Counted from the stretch's first letter, positions 3,503 through 53,227 are shown. The stretch: DNA of 64,000 nt from an uncultured Candidatus Saccharibacteria bacterium (GCA_964349945.1 CAYGIH010000001.1:227718-291717), one strand, 5' to 3'. Program-made: numbers and translations. The notes: generated by a model from the sequence alone, not told the origin.

Positions 3503-3913
3503 TTAACGCTTGCTCCACTGTGGTGCCTTTCGGGCTTTCTTCAATCCGAACTTACGTCGTTCTTTTGCTCTAGGATCTCTCTTTAAGAAGCCCTTCACCT
3601 TAAGCTTAGTTCTTAGGTTTACATCATATCCAAGGAGTGCGCGAGCGATACCATGTCTAAGAGCATCAGCTTGGGAGGAAACTCCACCTCCTTTGATTTG
3701 GGCTGTGACAGCAAATTTTTGTTCAAGGCCTGAAGCGATAAATGCTGACTTTACTGTTTGTCTTAGTTCTGCAGTAGGAAAATAATTTTCGAATTCTCTA
3801 TCGTTTATAGTGATAGAAAATTTGGATGCAGGAGTAATGCGAACACGAGCAGTAGAGGTCTTTCTTCGTCCAACAGCACCAATATATTTCTCTGAATTCT
3901 TTACTGCAGTCAT
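3503..3913 (-). CDS. rpsI: 30S ribosomal protein S9
   Basis: C-terminal '...KKARKAPQWSKR' S9 signature. 136 aa. Follows rplM. Confidence 0.93.
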   Translation of the reverse strand: MTAVKNSEKYIGAVGRRKTSTARVRITPASKFSITINDREFENYFPTAELRQTVKSAFIASGLEQKFAVTAQIKGGGVSSQADALRHGIARALLGYDVNLRTKLKVKGFLKRDPRAKERRKFGLKKARKAPQWSKR

Positions 3914-16834: not shown

Positions 16835-17917
16835 CTATGCAACTGAATATTTTCCTTCTTTGTCTTTCTTGAAGAATTTGCTGTTCTGAAGATTTACCAT
16901 AATAGTATTTTCTTTCACATACCTCTCTTTGAGAACTTTTTCAATAATTTTATCCTTACTGAGTGGTCCATCTTTCTCCAAAATCTTTTTAATAACATCC
17001 TTGACTACTCCGGACATATAACCCCATTCTGCAAGAGCGTATAAACCTCGTCCCACCAAAACAAATCTTGGATCCTTTATTAATTCATTATGTGTTGTAG
17101 CTACATGTGCTTTTTTGTCAAAATATTGAGAAATGGCCTTTGCTACTTCTTTAAAGTGTATAGGTGACCCATGCTTTCTTATAACCAAGAAAGCATAATC
17201 CCTCATACCTTTGGCATTTACATTTGGGGAAGTAGTTTTACCCCATTCACCTAGAGGGTTTTTGCCAATTTTATGAGAAATAGATAACCATCTCTTTATA
17301 ACTTCTTCATTTTTATATTTCTCATTTATATCCTTAACTTCATCAAGAAAATCATTAATAAGGTCACTCTCAACGACCAATTCATCATCTGAAAGCTTTG
17401 TGTATAATTTCCTTATTGCATTCTGAATTTTCTTTGCGAGCTCTGGGTCGACGTGCCATCTATGTTTAAATTCTTCGTCTTCTTTCTCCTTTTTAAATTC
17501 ATCTCCGATTACCAATAGAAAATTTATGTGATTTTGTGTAACTTGATCCTTAGATAAATGCTTCAATAAATCTTTCTCTGCCACAATACCCCCTAAGCTT
17601 AGAATCAATTCTTTTAATTCAGTGAATGCTAGTTGAGAATCCTTATATGACTTTGACTTGCGAATAGCTGCCAATGAGTGATTTTCAATCTGACGAACTC
17701 TTTCTCTAGTAATCCCATACTTCTTTCCAATAGAATCTAGAGTCATTTTTGTTGCCTTGGTGCCGAGTCCATATCTTGATTCTATGACATCTCGACCTCG
17801 TTTAGTGAGCCCAGAAAGAAGTGACTTGGTCACTTGTTTTGGCTTGAAGCTTAATGTTATTTTTTCACTCATATGTTTATAAAGTTTATTTGTATCACTT
17901 GACGCTATATCTGTCAA
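16835..17917 (-). CDS. Sigma-70 region-4-like HTH protein with C-terminal HARE-HTH-like domain (putative RNAP-associated regulator)
   Basis: 'DVIESRYGLGTKATKMTLDSIGKKYGITRERVRQIENHSLAAIRKS' closely matches the sigma region 4.2 pattern. The C-terminal 'FVLVGRGLYALAEWGY' resembles the HARE-HTH motif of the RNAP delta subunit. Confidence 0.5.
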   Translation of the reverse strand: MTDIASSDTNKLYKHMSEKITLSFKPKQVTKSLLSGLTKRGRDVIESRYGLGTKATKMTLDSIGKKYGITRERVRQIENHSLAAIRKSKSYKDSQLAFTELKELILSLGGIVAEKDLLKHLSKDQVTQNHINFLLVIGDEFKKEKEDEEFKHRWHVDPELAKKIQNAIRKLYTKLSDDELVVESDLINDFLDEVKDINEKYKNEEVIKRWLSISHKIGKNPLGEWGKTTSPNVNAKGMRDYAFLVIRKHGSPIHFKEVAKAISQYFDKKAHVATTHNELIKDPRFVLVGRGLYALAEWGYMSGVVKDVIKKILEKDGPLSKDKIIEKVLKERYVKENTIMVNLQNSKFFKKDKEGKYSVA

Positions 17918-21831: not shown

Positions 21832-22803
21832 TTAATTAGAATTTATGGTTTCGTTGCTAAAACTATAAAAAGTAATATTTTTAAATATCTTACTTTTAGT
21901 TATATAACTGTTTAAACTATAAATTCCAAACAATATAACCAAAACAATTAATCCATTAGTAATTAAATAGGGATGTCTTTTGTCTGTTCTTATAAACAAT
22001 TTTAGGATCAGTGCAAGTAAAATAATGGAACCAAATATGACGAAAATTATATTAGCCACATGTCCAGGAGAAGTGACATATTGCATAAATATATTTGACT
22101 TTTGATTTCTTGGTTGAGAAACATCATTATTTATAACTGCTTCAGCTCCAAGGACTTTAACCTCATTTATTTGGGTGGTTGCGGGCTTGCTATTTGATAG
22201 AACTTTCGTAGTTGATACAACAGCAGTTTCTGTCATAGGCCTTGCATAAACTTGAGCGATAAAAATTGTTGGATGGCCCTCAAAGGTACCACTCACTACA
22301 CCCGTACCCATTTCTGTATAAACACCCTTCACTATATTTGCTCTGTGTGTTGGAGAATTCATCCAAGCCAAAGTTACATCTTTAGAATCAGTAAAATCTA
22401 CTGCAAGGTTCTCCCCAGCAAATAGATATTTATAGCCAACTTTATCAAACCAGTACCACGGTGCCTTTCCCTCAGGACTTGTATGAGCGAAGTACCCCTT
22501 CTCAGCCATATCTCTAGCTTTTAATTCTGCTACCTCATTTAAAACAGGATTTATTCTCAAAAGAGCCAAATGATTTTCTTGTCTATTTTGATTCGAAAGA
22601 TCACCTAATACCCCAGGTAAAACTGCAGCAAGGTAACCATTGTATATTGGTCCAATCGTTGGTATATAAGGTATTGCAAATACTCCTAATTCCAAAACAA
22701 AAATTACCAGAATGACAACCCGGATGTTTTTAGAACGTAAAAAATGAGGCTGATGATCGTTCCCTTCATGAGGTATGAAGTGCTTTTTGAGCCATTTAAA
22801 CAT
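21832..22803 (-). CDS. CAP/SCP/PR1-like (YkwD-type) domain protein with N- and C-terminal TM segments
   Basis: 'MNSPTHRANIVKGVYTEMGTGV' CAP signature. Hydrophobic N-terminus and C-terminus. Confidence 0.65.
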   Translation of the reverse strand: MFKWLKKHFIPHEGNDHQPHFLRSKNIRVVILVIFVLELGVFAIPYIPTIGPIYNGYLAAVLPGVLGDLSNQNRQENHLALLRINPVLNEVAELKARDMAEKGYFAHTSPEGKAPWYWFDKVGYKYLFAGENLAVDFTDSKDVTLAWMNSPTHRANIVKGVYTEMGTGVVSGTFEGHPTIFIAQVYARPMTETAVVSTTKVLSNSKPATTQINEVKVLGAEAVINNDVSQPRNQKSNIFMQYVTSPGHVANIIFVIFGSIILLALILKLFIRTDKRHPYLITNGLIVLVILFGIYSLNSYITKSKIFKNITFYSFSNETINSN

Positions 22804-22819
22804 TTAATGATTATAAATC

Positions 22820-22852
22820 AAAAACTCACCCAAGTCTATGGGTGAGTTTTTT
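22820..22852. terminator. Bidirectional intrinsic terminator (ACTCACCCA...TGGGTGAGT flanked by A- and T-runs)
   Basis: 9-bp stem with a T-run on the plus strand and a T-run on the minus strand. Downstream of the beta-helix protein gene. Confidence 0.6.
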
Positions 22853-22873
22853 AAATTATTAGTCTTTGTCTTT

Positions 22874-24925
22874 CTACTGCATAGAGTTAATTTCTGCTTG
22901 TAGCAATACAATCAATTGTCTAATCAAATCTCTCAATTGAACCTTGATTGATTCTATTTGCTGAGCAACAGCCGCAGCATTTTCTGTCTCCGCACCAAGG
23001 ACACGTCCTACGGCTACAGGAGAAGCTTGAGATGGAAGTGATGAAGCAATTCTATTCGCTCCACTGCGTCCACCTGACCTTACTTCTGAGATGGGATCTA
23101 GGTCGCCAAAGGTTGTGAAGTGATATGTCCAGATAATTGTATTTCCAGAATCAGCTACATAACATTCACCAGAAGTGATACCAGGGACTGTCGCACTTGT
23201 ACATTGTGTTGATATGAGATGCCACTCTATAGAGCCTGCTGGTTTATAACCAACTCTACCTGTGACACCCGGAAGTGTAATTTTCACCGCTTTGTCGAAA
23301 GTTAAAGTGAAAAGAGGAGAACCCATTTCAATGACCATATCACCTACTGAGAAACTTGCAGGAGCTGTTCCCGAAGTGCTCCCAACTGTTGGAGCAGACA
23401 TTACTCCATCCCAACCAGCAGCTGTGACTGTTGTGTCAGCGGGAATTTCTACCGTTGCTATACTCGAAGTAAGTGTAGTCTCGGGAATTAGTCCCGTGCC
23501 AGTGACGTCGTCAATAAGTGAATCATAATTTATAGTTGCTCCCACAACGCTACCCAATTCGATTGTAACTGGTGTAGTTGCAGTGACAACAACTTCTTTT
23601 TCTGTTTCAGTTACCGTAGCAGTGCCAGTTTCATCTGGAGTTGTCTGACCTACTGCAAGTAAACTAAATACTCTTGTATTTCCATTATCAACATGAGAAT
23701 ACTGGTGATTTGTATCAATAACTGAAACTGCCTTAGTAGTGTCATCTTCCCAAATAGCAGTAGATTCTGTGTGAGAGCTTGTGCCATTTACTGTTAATGT
23801 AGCAGGACCAACTACTCCATTCCCCAAGTCTACGTTAATACCTCCCCATGAGTTATTTGCAGTTGTAATGTTGTTTACTGTCACAATCGAACCATTAACT
23901 GTTATACCTGATTTGTTGTTATTTGACGAAGTAACAGTATCAAGAATCACATTATTTGCTACGTAAATATTAAACCCATGAATTCCGGTACTTCCGGTTC
24001 CATTTTCAACTAAATTCTTAATTGTTACATCACTACTAGTAATTGTCATGGCAGAATTTGAACCATTGGTTACATTTGCGAATAGTGTATGGCCCAAACC
24101 ATCTATTGTTAGGGCCTTGTTAACAACAATTTGTGACGTTGTCGTTATATCAGAACCCAGTAGAACTGTGGCACCAGCTGAACTGTCTTCCATTACGTCT
24201 AGAAATGCTGCTAAATTTGATGCCTTTGAATACGATAATTTGTAACCACCGTTCCAATTTGAATGAACATAATCATAGTAACTTCCTGTAAAAGAATTAT
24301 TTGTCGCAAGTGACTGTTCATTACTTAGAGTTATTGTTGAGGAAGTTGTGCCACCCATTCCAACTCTTGACATATCTATTTCCTCTGCAATTAGAATTGC
24401 AGTTGAAGACCAACCAGGAACAGTTGCTCCATAACCCACAAAAGCGTTTCCAGTCGTATTAAGATTTGGAGTTGCACTACCATATGGCCAGACAACCACG
24501 CCGTTTCCAACTCCACCTCCAGCTGCTACTGCATCAGGATTGGGCATCTCAAATCTACAATTTGTAATATTCGCTGATTTTGAAACAACATTTACTGCAT
24601 TCTTCAACGAATCACTTCCACCCCCCCGGTTGTATACATTAAGACCGTCTAATGTATCATTGTCACCCTTAAGATTAAAAGTTCCATAAATCTTATTTCC
24701 ACTTGTACCATTAATTGTCACATTAGAGGATGTTACCTCATAAAGCGTATACTCTGTTGTGCTTCCCAATATGCCATCAACAGTAATAATATCTCCAGAG
24801 ATTGCGCTTGAAAGCGCGGCTGTTAACTCTGTTGGTGTTGTTACAGTTGTAGCTGCATAAGCATTTGCTGTAAATACAAAAAACATTGCAAGAAAAGCAA
24901 TAGAAACAAATCTAAGATTTTTCAT
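22874..24925 (-). CDS. Secreted parallel beta-helix (pectate-lyase-fold) repeat surface protein with Thr/Ser-rich region and C-terminal coiled-coil tail
   Basis: Signal peptide 'MKNLRFVSIAFLAMFFVFTANAYA'. Repeated 'NxTIxNxxF/GN' beta-helix rungs. 683 aa; low-complexity T/S/G-rich stretch. Confidence 0.6.
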   Translation of the reverse strand: MKNLRFVSIAFLAMFFVFTANAYAATTVTTPTELTAALSSAISGDIITVDGILGSTTEYTLYEVTSSNVTINGTSGNKIYGTFNLKGDNDTLDGLNVYNRGGGSDSLKNAVNVVSKSANITNCRFEMPNPDAVAAGGGVGNGVVVWPYGSATPNLNTTGNAFVGYGATVPGWSSTAILIAEEIDMSRVGMGGTTSSTITLSNEQSLATNNSFTGSYYDYVHSNWNGGYKLSYSKASNLAAFLDVMEDSSAGATVLLGSDITTTSQIVVNKALTIDGLGHTLFANVTNGSNSAMTITSSDVTIKNLVENGTGSTGIHGFNIYVANNVILDTVTSSNNNKSGITVNGSIVTVNNITTANNSWGGINVDLGNGVVGPATLTVNGTSSHTESTAIWEDDTTKAVSVIDTNHQYSHVDNGNTRVFSLLAVGQTTPDETGTATVTETEKEVVVTATTPVTIELGSVVGATINYDSLIDDVTGTGLIPETTLTSSIATVEIPADTTVTAAGWDGVMSAPTVGSTSGTAPASFSVGDMVIEMGSPLFTLTFDKAVKITLPGVTGRVGYKPAGSIEWHLISTQCTSATVPGITSGECYVADSGNTIIWTYHFTTFGDLDPISEVRSGGRSGANRIASSLPSQASPVAVGRVLGAETENAAAVAQQIESIKVQLRDLIRQLIVLLQAEINSMQ

Positions 24926-25292
24926 TAAAATATGTTTAAAATGTAAGGCTTATTTAAGAGTTATCAGATATATGGCAAACGGGCACATCTGAAGCAACCT
25001 ACATAAGCAGAATAAGTTGTTGTTCTCGGTATACGCCTTAGAACAAGAGGTGTCAATGTAGACAAAGTGCTTAAACTGTGGAGAAACTGTTTACAAGATT
25101 AAACCCTAGAATTTGACTCATAATCCGGCTTTCGGATTACATGGCGCTGTTGCCAATCAGAAACAATGTAGTAGCAAGTATTACTCCAATTGCTATTGGA
25201 TTTTTGGCTGATTCTAATAGTAATTTCATATTGTTGTTATTAATTAACGATTTCTATAACAACAATGACGATATGGACTTTAATCCATTACA

Positions 25293-25970
25293 TTATTTCT
25301 TAAATTTATCCTTACTATCCAAAACTCTTATAACAGTACCCTTGAGTCTCTCAACTTTATCCAACTGATCATCGTTTTGACTATTTTCTGTCCCTTCCTT
25401 CCCTTCTTTAACCTTGGTTTTGATTTTGTCCCTAAAATCCTGTTTTATTTTCTCTGTTTTTTCCTCAACTGCAGAAACTGAATCCTCTGTAGAAGAAGCG
25501 GCAGTATTTATTGCTTCAGCAAATGCTTTGGAATTCTTCTCAAGATTAAAATTTAATTCTTCGGCTTTCTTGTCATCAAGCTTATTTTTGACCGCAAGGG
25601 ATTCTGCTTCTTCAATACGACGAATAACCTTTTCTTCTGTCCAAGCCAAATTTTCTTCTGTAGAAACATTAATCACTCCAATTAATGGTTCGATGGCTCT
25701 TATTTTCATAAAATACAAAACGTCTCCAGGTAATGATTCATCAGAAGCATAAACAACACCTCCACCAATCAATACAGTCACAAAAAAGCTCGCGAACATT
25801 GCCTGTCTTTGATTAGAAAGCACAAATGCGAACATCCGACTATGTTTCATATACGGAGACTTTATGGGTGTTGAGGAGAAGATTCTTTGGAGCATACTGG
25901 CTTTTTCTTCACTGCTCATATTGATTTTCTTTATTTCCTCTATTCCTTTTTTAAATTCTGTTTCATTCAT
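25293..25970 (-). CDS. Putative anti-sigma factor (single-TM membrane protein) cognate to the upstream ECF sigma
   Basis: The ECF sigma stop (25972) and this start (25970) are 1 bp apart, so the two are translationally coupled. TM helix 'FASFFVTVLIGGGVVYA' with cytoplasmic N-terminus. Confidence 0.55.
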   Translation of the reverse strand: MNETEFKKGIEEIKKINMSSEEKASMLQRIFSSTPIKSPYMKHSRMFAFVLSNQRQAMFASFFVTVLIGGGVVYASDESLPGDVLYFMKIRAIEPLIGVINVSTEENLAWTEEKVIRRIEEAESLAVKNKLDDKKAEELNFNLEKNSKAFAEAINTAASSTEDSVSAVEEKTEKIKQDFRDKIKTKVKEGKEGTENSQNDDQLDKVERLKGTVIRVLDSKDKFKK

Positions 25971-25971
25971 A

Positions 25972-26493
25972 TTATTGTTCTTTAATACCCATAAGCTTTC
26001 TCAAATCCTCTAACCCTCTATTGATTCGCACGGATACAGTACCCGCATTAATATTCAACATTAGTGCAATGTCCTTTGGTGGGAAACCTTCTATATAATT
26101 TAGATATATTACCTCTCTGTATAGTGGATTCATATTATTAAGTATTGTAAGTGCTTTCTTCGCATCAGAATGTATTTCAATATTTGAGAGGGCCTCTTCA
26201 TCTGGTACTTCAAACTTAATACCATCCTCTTCAGAAAGTGACTCTAATGAGATTGATTTGCTTTTTTTATACCAATCTATAATAAGATGTCTGACCACCA
26301 CAAAGAGATATGCTCGAGGGTTCTCTATGGCTTTACCAGATGAGACTGCGACCCAATAGCGAGTGAAGCTCTCGGCCACAATATCAAGCGCTTGCTCCCT
26401 GTCCGAAACCCTAAGTAAACAAAATCTAAAAAGAGAGCCACTTTCTCTATTATAGATTTCAGTAAAACGCTTTTTATCATCTTCTACTATCAT
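25972..26493 (-). CDS. ECF-type RNA polymerase sigma factor (sigma-70 regions 2 and 4)
   Basis: Region 2 'FTRYWVAV...AYLFVVVRHLIIDWYKK'; region 4 'YREVIYLNYIEGFPPKDIALMLNINAGTVSVRINRGLEDLRK'. Confidence 0.85.
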   Translation of the reverse strand: MIVEDDKKRFTEIYNRESGSLFRFCLLRVSDREQALDIVAESFTRYWVAVSSGKAIENPRAYLFVVVRHLIIDWYKKSKSISLESLSEEDGIKFEVPDEEALSNIEIHSDAKKALTILNNMNPLYREVIYLNYIEGFPPKDIALMLNINAGTVSVRINRGLEDLRKLMGIKEQ

Positions 26494-26500
26494 AACGATT

Positions 26501-26515
26501 AGGAAATTGTTTCCT
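26501..26515. promoter_or_regulatory. Perfect inverted repeat AGGAAA-ttg-TTTCCT in the divergent sigma / FN3-protein control region
   Basis: 6-bp arms with a 3-bp spacer, 8..22 nt upstream of the sigma start codon. A candidate operator or autoregulatory site. Confidence 0.35.
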
Positions 26516-26656
26516 TACAAAGAAACTATTCTAAACATTATGCTTTAAATTTTGTATTTGTCCATGAAAGACTTGCTCCAACTCACTCGTCTCTATTTAT
26601 AGCGGCGAATATTGACGCTGAGTAATTACTGAAAATTAATAATTAAATTAAAATGC

Positions 26657-27520
26657 ATGTCTAGTAAATTTTTAAAGAACTTCATGTTGGGTACAATGGT
26701 CACTCTCTTCGCAGTTACCCCGATGTTGTCGTACGCGAAGGATAAAGATAAGGAGAAGAACGAGAATTCACGTTCTAACTCTTCATCATGTATAAAGGCC
26801 TTTGGTCATCTCATCGCTCCTGGGTATATCAAAATAAAGGGGGAAGCAGATTTTAGACAGAGTTGTTTCTACCCTTTCGGTATAAACAAAAAAATTGGTG
26901 GTAATGCAAGCTCAACTCCTGACACACTAGCTCCAATCATTAGTAATGTTTCAATCTCACCAAAGATTACAACTGCCAATATTGTTTGGAAAACTAATGA
27001 GAGGTCAAATAGTACAGTTTTTTGGAGTTTATCTACTCCAGTGAATACTGTCAGTGCTTCATCCACGAGCCAAAACAAGCTTACCAAGGATCACAAGCTA
27101 AAGATAAGTGGGTTGGTTGCGGGCACTGCGTATCACTTCGTAGTTAGATCTACTGACGTTGCCGGCAATGTTTTCACTTCAAACGAAGGCACGTTTACTA
27201 CTAAAACTCCTGACTTGGATGCAGTCACTCCAATAATATCCAATGTTGCCTCTCTTGCTGGGTCTACTACAATAAATGTTAGTTGGAAGACAAACGAGCA
27301 ATCTTCATCTAAATTATTTTATTCGACCGTGAACCCACTTGTTATCTCTGCCAGCACCACGAACTTCGTTTCATCTGAATCACTTGTATTAAACCACGCC
27401 TTAGGTATTACTGGACTAGCCACTGGCACTCCATATAGCCTAGTAATTCAATCAAAAGATTCTGCTGGGAACATCACCACTTCTCCACAGTTTACGTCCA
27501 CTACTACTTCTGGATTATAG
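26657..27520 (+). CDS. Secreted protein with two tandem FN3-like repeats
   Basis: Signal peptide; internal duplication 'PIISNVSISPKITTANIVWKTNERSNSTVFWS' and 'PIISNVASLAGSTTINVSWKTNEQSSSKLFYS'. Divergent from the ECF sigma gene. Confidence 0.6.
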   Translation: MSSKFLKNFMLGTMVTLFAVTPMLSYAKDKDKEKNENSRSNSSSCIKAFGHLIAPGYIKIKGEADFRQSCFYPFGINKKIGGNASSTPDTLAPIISNVSISPKITTANIVWKTNERSNSTVFWSLSTPVNTVSASSTSQNKLTKDHKLKISGLVAGTAYHFVVRSTDVAGNVFTSNEGTFTTKTPDLDAVTPIISNVASLAGSTTINVSWKTNEQSSSKLFYSTVNPLVISASTTNFVSSESLVLNHALGITGLATGTPYSLVIQSKDSAGNITTSPQFTSTTTSGL

Positions 27521-27550
27521 GTATCTCCTATTGAATTCATGATCAACTAA

Positions 27551-27580
27551 AAACAGCGCTCCCGCGCTGTTTTTATTGTT
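27551..27580. terminator. Bidirectional intrinsic terminator (CAGCGC-tccc-GCGCTG with flanking T/A runs)
   Basis: GC stem followed by TTTTTATTGTTTTATTTT on the plus strand and by a T-run on the minus strand. Lies between convergent genes. Confidence 0.65.
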
Positions 27581-28698: not shown

Positions 28699-28769
28699 TG
28701 GACCTAGCGGGAATCGCACCCGCGATTCGTCCATGCCATGGACGCGTGTTACTACTATACTATAGGCCC
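28699..28769 (-). tRNA. tRNA-Ala (anticodon GGC)
   Basis: Cloverleaf with 7-bp acceptor stem carrying the G3:U70 alanine identity pair, anticodon loop AUGGCAU, and a GC-rich T-stem GCGGG/CCCGC. The T-loop UGCGAUU is slightly non-canonical. CCA is not encoded. Confidence 0.6.
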
Positions 28770-28908: not shown

Positions 28909-28984
28909 GGGCCCTTAGCTTAGTTGGTAGAGCGCCTCATTTGCAATGAGGAGGTCACCGGTTCGAATCCGGTAGGGTCCACCA
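28909..28984 (+). tRNA. tRNA-Ala (anticodon UGC), CCA encoded
   Basis: GGGCCCU acceptor with G3:U70, D-arm AGCUUAGUUGGUAGAGC, anticodon loop UUUGCAA, T-arm GGUUCGAAUCC, 3' ACCA. Confidence 0.9.
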
Positions 28985-29364
28985 TGACGAGCGTAGTTGA
29001 GAAGTTGTTTGATAAAGAAAACGGGAATTTAGTTGTCCCGTTAGCTCTGTTTATATTGTTTTTTATTCTTAAAGCTTTTGCTGGCTTTTCTGAACTGACT
29101 TCAACAATAATCGCGATATTATTCAGTGCCACCATCTTTAAGGTCAGAATTCATAAAGGTGAATACAAAGTATTTCTGCTTGGTCTATTTATTGGCTCTT
29201 TTATAGAAATTGTTCTCGGCCTAGTATCAAGAAAACAATTCTGGGATGATGCGTCTCTTTTGGGTGTGCCTGCTTGGCTCCCTATTGCTTGGGCTATAGG
29301 TTTTGTAGTCATCACAAGAGTTGGAATGACTATTGAAGGTTTTAAATGGAAAAATGGGGATTAA
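28984..29364 (+). CDS. Hypothetical small membrane protein (about 126 aa from the ATG at 28984)
   Basis: Three or four hydrophobic helices. The longer track ORF begins with TTG inside the tRNA; the ATG overlaps the last tRNA base. Confidence 0.4.
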   Translation: MTSVVEKLFDKENGNLVVPLALFILFFILKAFAGFSELTSTIIAILFSATIFKVRIHKGEYKVFLLGLFIGSFIEIVLGLVSRKQFWDDASLLGVPAWLPIAWAIGFVVITRVGMTIEGFKWKNGD

Positions 29365-51718: not shown

Positions 51719-53227
51719 TTGGAAAACAAAAAGCAAGTTATTCTATCTAAAACTAATTACATTCTCTACAGAGATTGTCCGAAGAATACTTGGCTCAAAA
51801 TCCATAAACCAGACGTTTACTTCAAGTCAGAGCTTTCTGATTTTGAAAAATCAATTATAGAAACAGGAAACGAAGTAGAATTAGAAGCTAGAAAACTGTT
51901 CCCTACTGGTGTTCTCATCGAAGGACGTGATGAAGACGCTCAAAAATTAACGGCAGATTATATTAGAGAAAAACAGCCAACATTCTTTCAGGCTGTTTTT
52001 TCTATTAATGACTATCTGGCAGCTACAGACATTTTGAAATTTCATCCAGAAACTAATTCGTATTCTATATACGAAGTGAAAGCTTCAAATAGTGTAGATT
52101 TAAAGGTTCATATTCATGACCTGGCCTTTCAGGTTAATGTCTTACGACAAGTTGGGTTAACAGTCACAAGTGCCGTTGTTATCCATTTGAATCCAGAATA
52201 TGTAAGAGATGGAGAACTTGAGATTACTAAGCTCTTTCAGGAAACAAATGTTACTAAACAGGTCGAAGAAATTTCTATGGAGGTTTGGGATGAAATGAAT
52301 TTTGCCTTAAAGTATTTGAGAGATGAGAATGAACCCACTGGTCCATGTTCATGTCTACGCAAGGGCCGTTCGAAACACTGCACTACATTCCACTACTCAA
52401 ACCCTCAAGTACCTGATTATAGTGTCCATGATATAGCCAGAATTGGTTTGAGTAAGGTTAAACTTACTGAGCTTGTTGACTCAAACATCTTTCACATCAA
52501 AGATGTGCCTAGAGAATTTGAACTATCAGAAACCCAGAGAAATCAAATTGATTCATATGTTTTCGACAGAGTTATAATTGACCATGACAAAATCAAAGAA
52601 GAATTTGAAGATTTAGTGTTCCCTCTTTATTTCCTAGACTATGAGACCTTCCCCGCTGCCATACCACGCTTCGATGGATTTTCACCCTATCAGCAAATTC
52701 CCTTTCAATATTCTCTACATGTTGTAGACAAGCCAGAAAGTGAGCCAAAACATTTTGAATTTCTCTATACAGAAAACGGTGACCCTAGTCACTCCTTTGT
52801 AGAGTCAATGCAAAAACACATAGGTAAAGTTGGAAGTATAATTGTCTGGCACAAAAGTTTTGAATGTAGCAGAAATAAGGAATTAGCCACAAGAATACCC
52901 GAAGCAAAAAGTTTCTTAAATGACATTAATAACCGCACTTATGACCTTGAGGATATCTTCAAGAAGCAATACCATGTCCACAAAGACTACAAAGGTAGTA
53001 GCTCTATCAAGAAAGTTTTACCAGTTCTTGCTCCAGATTTGTCATATAAGAACCTAGAAATCCAAGAAGGCGGCAGCGCAACTCAAGCATGGAACAAAGT
53101 TGTCACTGCAGAATTAGAACCATTTGAACGGGAAACAATTATAGATAACCTTAAAAACTATTGTAAGTTAGATACTTACGCCATGTATGCTATTTGGAGA
53201 GAACTCAATAGTCTAATATCCTCTTAG
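51719..53227 (+). CDS. PD-(D/E)xK (Cas4/RecB-like) nuclease fused to a C-terminal DUF2779-type RNase-H-like exonuclease domain
   Basis: N-terminal '[10 protein letters not shown]' followed by 'IYEVKAS' ExK core. Central Cys cluster '[12 protein letters not shown]'. C-terminal 'LYFLDYETF' and '[13 protein letters not shown]' DEDD-like motifs. Confidence 0.6.

Follow-up and report, generated by a model that had tools for sequence, protein, structure and literature searches.

An ECF sigma factor module with a DUF5667-type membrane partner and a neighbouring beta-helix–CAP surface gene pair, probably independent of it, in a Parcubacteria genome

We analysed a 64,000-nucleotide (nt) stretch of DNA from an ENA metagenome contig (GCA_964349945.1 CAYGIH010000001.1:227718-291717; hereafter, the window), in which positions 21832 to 27520 hold genes for an extracytoplasmic function (ECF) sigma factor, a putative anti-sigma factor and three secreted or membrane-anchored proteins: one with fibronectin type III (FN3) repeats, one with a parallel beta-helix and one with a CAP domain. 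The region probably consists of two functionally independent modules that are neighbours by chance. Module A (25293-27520) comprises the sigma gene, its putative anti-sigma partner and the divergent FN3 gene, and module B (21832-25091) comprises the beta-helix and CAP genes. As an ECF system, module A belongs to a known kind; what sets it apart are an anti-sigma partner of an uncharacterised type and an unusual overlap, conserved among loci, between a promoter element and a start codon. The initial annotation of this DNA had proposed that all five genes belong to one envelope or surface-remodelling regulon. We found open reading frames (ORFs) exactly where it had placed the five genes, and the domains it had named were present; the significance that it attached to an inverted repeat, an overlap of the sigma and anti-sigma genes and its count of transmembrane (TM) segments in the CAP protein did not stand. 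As for the regulon, the sigma, anti-sigma and FN3 unit held, and the membership of the beta-helix and CAP genes was not supported, in view of synteny, promoters of their own, a terminator and the lack of an ECF-type site.

To place the region in context, we scanned genome and metagenome collections for relatives of the sigma module and obtained 28 loci, of which about 20 were distinct. The related loci were from metagenome-assembled genomes of Zambryskibacteria, Minisyncoccia and Paceibacterota (Patescibacteria/Parcubacteria group), and the window genome belongs to the Parcubacteria group and is Zambryskibacteria/Paceibacterota-like. The gene order in about 20 loci was DUF5679, a gene for a 74-amino-acid (aa) protein, Flavodoxin_2, the divergent FN3 gene, sigma and anti-sigma, followed, after a stretch of 0.3 to 4.7 kb with unrelated cargo, by YchF and leucyl-tRNA synthetase (LeuRS). 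FN3 orthologues were divergent from the sigma gene in at least 13 loci, and the arrangement pointed out in the initial annotation, a sigma/anti-sigma pair sharing a control region with a divergent FN3 gene, was kept in all of these. None of the approximately 19 other sigma-bearing loci carried a beta-helix or CAP gene. A beta-helix homologue followed by a CAP gene was found in L003, L005, L006, L040, L041 and L042 (seven genomes with the window included), and a sigma gene was adjacent to the pair in none of these related loci. L040 and L005 had the flanks seen in the window together with the beta-helix–CAP pair, without the sigma and anti-sigma genes, and the surface cluster of L003 and L006 lay between infA and rpmJ, two genes that are adjacent in the window. 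Upstream of the pair, Ice_binding (DUF3494) genes occurred often and a sortase gene sometimes. Because there are sigma loci without the pair and pair loci without sigma, each module persists without the other.

Aligning the FN3–sigma intergenic regions of the related loci revealed a two-block motif, GAAAG-N16-CGTY(AT), with two copies per locus, one towards the FN3 gene and one towards the sigma gene. The sigma-side copy, G[AT]AAG-N16-CGTY, was present in 20 out of 20 distinct sigma upstream regions, and the FN3-side copy, GAAAG-N15-17-CGTY, in nearly all loci, approximately 45-65 nt upstream of the FN3 ATG. In the window, the FN3-side copy is GAAAG-N17-CGTC (26566-26591, + strand), about 65 nt upstream of the ATG; the sigma-side copy is GTAAG-N16-CGTT (26494-26518, − strand), with one mismatch to GAAAG in the −35 block and with its CGTT abutting the sigma ATG. 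With two copies per locus in 20 distinct loci, the motif has the bipartite form of an ECF promoter, and the sigma factor encoded beside it would be its likely user.

We then scored sites with a position weight matrix (PWM) that was limited to the core positions and trained on the relatives only, as a version that included the flanks was over-fitted by the sigma-side ATG and missed the FN3-side site of the window. This genome-internal scan for targets covered the 64 kb of the window. The initial annotation had advised a search for ECF-type motifs upstream of the FN3 gene, which starts at 26657, and the FN3-side site (26564-26592; 17.1 bits) ranked first in the whole 64 kb. Exact matches to the motif numbered 26 in 13 loci (155 kb, three of these loci without sigma), and about 19 of them fell in sigma–FN3 intergenic regions, which total about 1.5 kb. 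The exact matches in the window at 51837, 32588 and 45144 were set aside: each falls within a coding region or antisense to one, and their count is what chance predicts.

A sigma70-like promoter facing the sigma gene, TGGACA-N16-CATAAT (26537-26564, − strand), was the best-scoring site in a scan of the region. It runs from 26564 down to 26537, in the space between the two −35 elements and back-to-back with that of the FN3 side. An equivalent, T[AG]GACA-N17-TATTGT, is carried by the relatives whose spacer is long but not by compact loci. In the compact loci, the two −35 pentamers make a near-palindrome, CTTTC-N3-13-GAAAG, and this symmetry raises the question of whether the twin elements are sites for another regulator, or an RNA element in the sigma leader, rather than promoters for this sigma factor. 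The gap between the pentamers ranges from 3 to 58 nt across loci, however, which is not expected of a dimeric operator. The sigma-side copy is indeed placed where a normal promoter could not give a translatable sigma mRNA, but the FN3-side copy sits at a normal promoter distance from its ATG. Two blocks separated by an unconserved 16-nt spacer are an ECF signature; the motif is nearly the same as the consensus of Bacillus subtilis SigW (TGAAAC-N16-CGTA), itself the nearest solved relative of the sigma factor. An element acting at the RNA level is countered by the lack of any conserved structure or Rfam match: the Rfam scan of 19-31 kb of the window gave two tRNAs and sub-threshold noise, leaving the control regions empty, and RNAalifold on 15 sigma leaders returned 0 pairs and no common hairpin. 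We regard this alternative as highly improbable.

The initial annotation had also drawn attention to a perfect 6-3-6 inverted repeat, AGGAAAttgTTTCCT (26501-26515), 7 nt upstream of the sigma ATG. The repeat is there, but a role as an operator was not supported. Perfect 6-3-6 repeats occur 19 times in the window versus 24.2 expected from shuffles, and this one was not conserved in the 19 other distinct sigma upstream regions. It falls in the −35 and spacer of the sigma-side motif, where the spacer is unconserved, and is an incidental, chance sequence within that promoter.

Turning to module B, both genes lie on the − strand, the beta-helix gene at 22874-24925 and the CAP gene at 21832-22803. 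Upstream of the beta-helix gene, a conserved block (25011-25091, −) is 86% identical to L005, above the identity of coding DNA. It contains a sigma70-type promoter, TTGACA-N17-TATACC (25056 down to 25028), whose TTGACA is invariant in six genomes, whether or not a sigma gene is nearby. Approximately 20 nt upstream of this −35 lies the element AACAGTTTCTCCAC (25091 down to 25078), which follows the consensus AACAG[CT]TTCT[AC]CAC at homologous positions in L003, L005, L006 and L040 and may bind a regulator or act as an UP-like element. The CAP gene is preceded by an intrinsic terminator (22820-22851, −), a 13-bp stem followed by a T-run, and by a sigma70-like promoter, TAGACT-N17-TATAAT (22810-22838, −). 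The TATAAT −10 stops 6 nt short of the ATG, a spacing compatible with a leaderless mRNA, and we saw no Shine-Dalgarno sequence at any start codon inspected in the region.

Further upstream, a 30-codon ORF (25137-25229, −) has 63% aa identity to the N-terminus of the L005 Ice_binding gene, and its DNA, upstream region included, is 77% identical to L005 over 150 nt. By this comparison, the ORF is what remains, promoter region and signal peptide, of the 5' end of an Ice_binding/DUF3494 gene that has been deleted here and is still intact in L005. At the deletion junction, a hairpin, TAATCCGAAAGCCGGATTA (25121-25139, −), has no U-tract and is absent from L005. In the arrangement that we propose, the beta-helix and CAP genes would each be transcribed from a sigma70-type promoter of their own, and the pair travels as a unit in other genomes, often with Ice_binding-family proteins and a sortase; here the Ice_binding gene is reduced to the stub.

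Against this arrangement stands a single ECF surface-remodelling regulon, in which the sigma factor would drive the FN3, beta-helix and CAP genes, either directly or through transcription that reads on from the sigma operon or from the promoter of the Ice_binding stub. All of the genes concerned encode secreted or membrane proteins, yet in no other genome that we examined do the two modules occur together. The beta-helix and CAP genes are on the same strand as the anti-sigma gene and downstream of it, and 24926-25292 contains no canonical terminator; with no terminator between the anti-sigma and beta-helix genes, co-transcription by read-through is possible. Nevertheless, the beta-helix gene has its own conserved promoter, and a strong terminator precedes the CAP gene. 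The initial annotation had suggested looking for ECF-type motifs upstream of the beta-helix gene as well, and there the search came out negative: between 21832 and 25300, the core PWM gave no score higher than 9.2 bits, and none of its hits was above background. The 9.2-bit site, a weak GTAAT-N16-CGTCAT, is kept upstream of the Ice_binding stub, but about 25 sites with such a score are expected by chance in the window (the expectation falls from 38.8 above 8 bits to 13.8 above 10 bits).

A stronger site exists in L003: a perfect ECF-type sequence scoring 19.0 bits, placed 68 nt ahead of the Ice_binding gene that heads an Ice_binding/sortase/beta-helix/CAP cluster. This site (3790-3817, +; cATGAAAGg-N16-CGTTATA) scored above every maximum of ten 64-kb shuffles, one of which reached 18.1 bits. 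The cluster holds Ice_binding, SpaA-like, sortase, beta-helix and CAP genes, with no sigma gene within 7 kb, and a second, divergent site (3636-3664, −; 16.6 bits) lies antisense within infA. The missing terminator, the L003 site and the kept site at the stub all weigh against independent modules. However, the clusters of L005 and L006 are without a convincing ECF-type site; an L006 candidate with an N15 spacer was dismissed as chance, as it lies in the last infA codons and has no homology with the one in L003. We consider a single regulon in the window quite unlikely. Indirect ECF control of such surface clusters, or a looser link at the level of the lineage, is a possibility of similarly low probability.

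We next characterised the proteins of module A, which we continue to treat as a unit separate from the beta-helix–CAP pair. The sigma gene (25972-26493, −) encodes an ECF (group IV) sigma factor of 173 aa that contains only the sigma2 and sigma4 domains (Sigma70_r2, 33.3 bits; Sigma70_r4_2, 47.1 bits) and passes TIGR02937 (76.6 bits versus a cutoff of 42.9), in agreement with the initial annotation. The nearest solved sequence relative is B. subtilis SigW (5wuq; E=1.3e-10). All NCBIfam subfamily and equivalog matches were below cutoff, the best being TIGR02985 (86.5 versus 126.4), and a named ECF subfamily could not be assigned by this route.

The putative anti-sigma gene (25293-25970, −; 225 aa) follows immediately. 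The two genes had been described as overlapping, but the junction reads TAA-T-ATG, such that the anti-sigma start lies 1 nt past the sigma stop. A TM scan identified one TM segment (residues 57-75), and an AlphaFold2 (AF2) model showed a short two-helix N-terminus, then the TM segment, then an extracytoplasmic helical domain of the DUF5667 type. The window protein itself scored 23.4 bits on DUF5667 (PF18915), under the cutoff of 27, and precomputed PF18915 matches were listed for 9 out of 9 of its homologues. In every locus examined, the homologues lie directly after an orthologous ECF sigma gene. The DUF5667-type family is large: counting clusters at 50% identity, we found 5980 cluster representatives at E<=1e-3 and at least 2841 at E<=1e-10, the latter figure being a lower bound. 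The literature that we searched contained no mention of DUF5667, and searches on ECF with Parcubacteria and on DUF3494 with sortase found nothing relevant.

Taken together, a gene beside the sigma gene and a single-pass topology are what is expected of an anti-sigma factor, and the DUF5667 membrane protein would, on this sequence evidence, sequester the sigma factor. In the circuit that we propose, the DUF5667 single-pass protein would hold the ECF sigma factor inactive at the membrane; released sigma would recognise the SigW-like GAAAG-N16-CGTY(AT) promoter and would drive the divergent secreted FN3 gene. The second copy of the motif would face the sigma operon, and the sigma70-like promoter would give basal expression. 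The motif is present and conserved; its use by this sigma factor, and binding between the sigma factor and its partner, we infer. Several observations weigh against this circuit. The N-terminus of the anti-sigma candidate has no known anti-sigma domain by Pfam, NCBIfam or PDB relatives. The window sigma-side site, with its degenerate −35, scored 12.4 bits by the core PWM, within the range of shuffled sequence, and its −10 abuts the start codon, which makes its part in sigma synthesis uncertain. Within residues 1-55 of the candidate, we also sought a Cys/His motif and found none, and Foldseek with the model returned generic helical bundles only, none at E<0.001.

The position of the sigma-side −10 deserves closer attention. 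Its CGTY directly abuts the sole possible sigma start codon in 18 out of 20 distinct loci. The exceptions are L036/L039, with 3 nt between the two, and L017, with 13 nt to the aligned ATG; in L017, an earlier in-frame ATG 7 nt past the CGTC would fit a leaderless mRNA. The next in-frame start in the sigma gene is Met121. Sigma codon 2 is mostly TCT, and a pyrimidine–purine step occurs at about codon 3/4 in most orthologues (L008-L039; window 26484-26518). As a rule, the transcription start site lies about 10 nt past the flipped-out −10 base (PMC7776599), and by this geometry a sigma-dependent start is predicted about 10 nt inside the sigma ORF. Because the −10 abuts the start codon, a sigma-dependent transcript would start within the ORF, at about codon 4, without an AUG.

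What such a transcript would do is less certain. One tentative reading, which we regard as rather less probable than not, is negative feedback: initiation at about codon 4 would yield an mRNA for the anti-sigma factor only, and the bound polymerase would block the housekeeping promoter upstream. Alternatively, the holoenzyme may initiate unusually near the −10 and produce a leaderless sigma mRNA, a reading that stays alive because the compact loci are without an evident alternative promoter. An unseen upstream promoter for the sigma gene is a further possibility. By eye, we saw no consistent hexamer at −12 to −7 that would serve as a sigma70 −10 for a leaderless sigma mRNA.

Module A can be compared with the B. 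subtilis SigW–RsiW system, which consists of an ECF sigma factor, a single-pass anti-sigma factor and an autoregulated promoter. Both sigma factors have sigma2 and sigma4 only, in both systems the next gene downstream encodes a single-pass membrane protein, and the promoter motif of module A is near the SigW consensus. By contrast, the window partner is without the zinc-binding HxxxCxxC domain and has instead an N-terminus of about 55 aa with two helices and a DUF5667 outer domain. Also unlike SigW–RsiW, the sigma-side −10 overlaps the start codon, and the main conserved target appears to be the divergent FN3 protein rather than a large detoxification regulon. A second comparison is offered by sigR of Streptomyces coelicolor, which has two promoters with different products, one of them the sigma-R' isoform (PMC4921905). 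As in sigR, a constitutive and a sigma-dependent promoter would precede one ECF sigma gene, and the choice of promoter would alter the translatable product. The sigma-dependent promoter of S. coelicolor, however, lies upstream and yields a longer isoform, whereas the one here is predicted to start transcription inside the ORF, with no sigma factor encoded.

The FN3 gene (26657-27520, +) is likely the main local target of the ECF sigma factor, given that one copy of the ECF-type motif faces it. It encodes a secreted protein of 287 aa with a signal peptide, a charged linker, a conserved Cys-bracketed motif of about 30 aa and two FN3-like domains. Pfam matches above cutoff (PF00041 fn3, 29.9 bits versus 25; PF16656 Pur_ac_phosph_N, 45.9 bits versus 30, in two stretches) bear out the two FN3-like repeats that had been read from the sequence. 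A terminator at 27548-27575 (+) separates the FN3 gene from the convergent Flavodoxin_2 gene.

In module B, the beta-helix gene encodes a secreted surface protein of 683 aa. An AF2 model built with 26 homologues (pLDDT 79) contained two beta-helix modules and so confirmed the secreted parallel beta-helix protein of the initial annotation. The model begins with a signal peptide, a beta-helix (24-163), a disordered S/T-rich linker and a very confident beta-helix (229-425), and continues with a beta-sandwich region (430-610), a GRVLGA motif and a long amphipathic helix (646-681). The protein had no Pfam match above threshold, and a PDB sequence search with the family profile matched only the peptidoglycan-binding domains of homologues. 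The homologues are modular, with residues 250-425 repeated up to three times in one protein.

The beta-helix protein is of the "pectate-lyase-like adhesive domain" type: 8 out of 26 homologues match PF20585 (putative pectate lyase-like adhesive domain), with the matches placed where each beta-helix module begins, and 15 out of 26 end in PG_binding_1. Both features argue for an adhesin. Within the conserved module, N343, N357, W359, D365, D393 and Y408 are invariant and K302 and E386 nearly so, a set of polar residues that would also suit a polysaccharide lyase, hydrolase or epimerase acting on glycans of a host or of the cell's own envelope. Identity to such enzymes (e.g., PL1, PL6 and GH28) is 8-16%, however, a level at which catalytic residues cannot be mapped. 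An enzyme is a possibility to be taken seriously, if the less probable of the two. Like PfbA of Streptococcus pneumoniae and other PF20585 proteins, the window protein is secreted and surface-associated. Unlike them, it reaches no Pfam threshold, has no LPXTG and ends in GxVLGA and an amphipathic helix rather than in a sortase signal or a peptidoglycan-binding domain.

The GxVLGA motif recurs: in 22 of the 27 members of the beta-helix family, G-x-VLGA-[ESQT] stands ahead of the C-terminal peptidoglycan-binding domain or amphipathic helix. Instances are GRVLGAE in the beta-helix protein (639-645), KVLGAEA in the CAP protein (214-220) and QVLGAST in a 252-aa secreted protein of L040. The motif may serve Parcubacteria surface proteins as a signal for sorting or processing.

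The CAP gene encodes a membrane-anchored CAP/SCP (YkwD-like) protein of 323 aa. Its CAP domain is clear (PF00188, residues 70-177; 57.8 bits versus a cutoff of 21.1), as had been annotated. Instead of two TM anchors, we found three hydrophobic segments (29-47, 252-270 and 279-297), the first serving as N-terminal anchor and the others as C-terminal TM segments. The protein shares PF00188 with the CAP proteins YkwD and DalA, and its best NCBIfam match is YkwD, but it stays under the cutoffs for both (YkwD, 108 versus 171; DalA, 44.7 versus 200). It also differs from YkwD and the divisome lipoprotein DalA in its N-terminal anchor and two C-terminal TM segments and in the coupling of its gene to a beta-helix gene in seven genomes.

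We also recorded several features of the surroundings. The flanks of the sigma module (anti-sigma to ychF, or upstream of sigma) are hot spots of variable cargo in L012-L018, L009 and L039. This cargo includes methyltransferase-like and DUF262-like genes (L018), a histidine kinase, a response regulator and PP2C (L013, L039), HATPase_c_3 and HTH genes (L009) and small anchored secreted proteins (L013, L016). Beside LeuRS, the window encodes a 360-aa protein with Sigma70 region 4 and HARE-HTH (16835-17917, −), an unusual sigma-like or RNA polymerase-associated protein whose position is kept in L040 (12849-13886). Just past the Flavodoxin_2/74-aa/DUF5679 block are two tRNA genes (28699-28769, −; 28909-28981, +). 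An ORF at 28924-29364 (+) overlaps the second tRNA gene, and its 5' end is probably spurious.

To our knowledge, the candidate phyla radiation (CPR)/Patescibacteria have very few regulators, and how they signal has hardly been studied. Module A would give the Parcubacteria lineage a concrete ECF circuit, with a sigma factor, a DUF5667 partner, a promoter motif and a target, and it suggests a function for the DUF5667 family. The neighbouring module B is a reminder that surface genes adjacent to a sigma gene should not be read as its regulon without comparative evidence. Finally, the conserved overlap of the −10 with the sigma start codon could reveal a non-canonical autoregulatory design; if the negative-feedback reading were true, this ECF circuit would be the opposite of the usual positive autoregulation.

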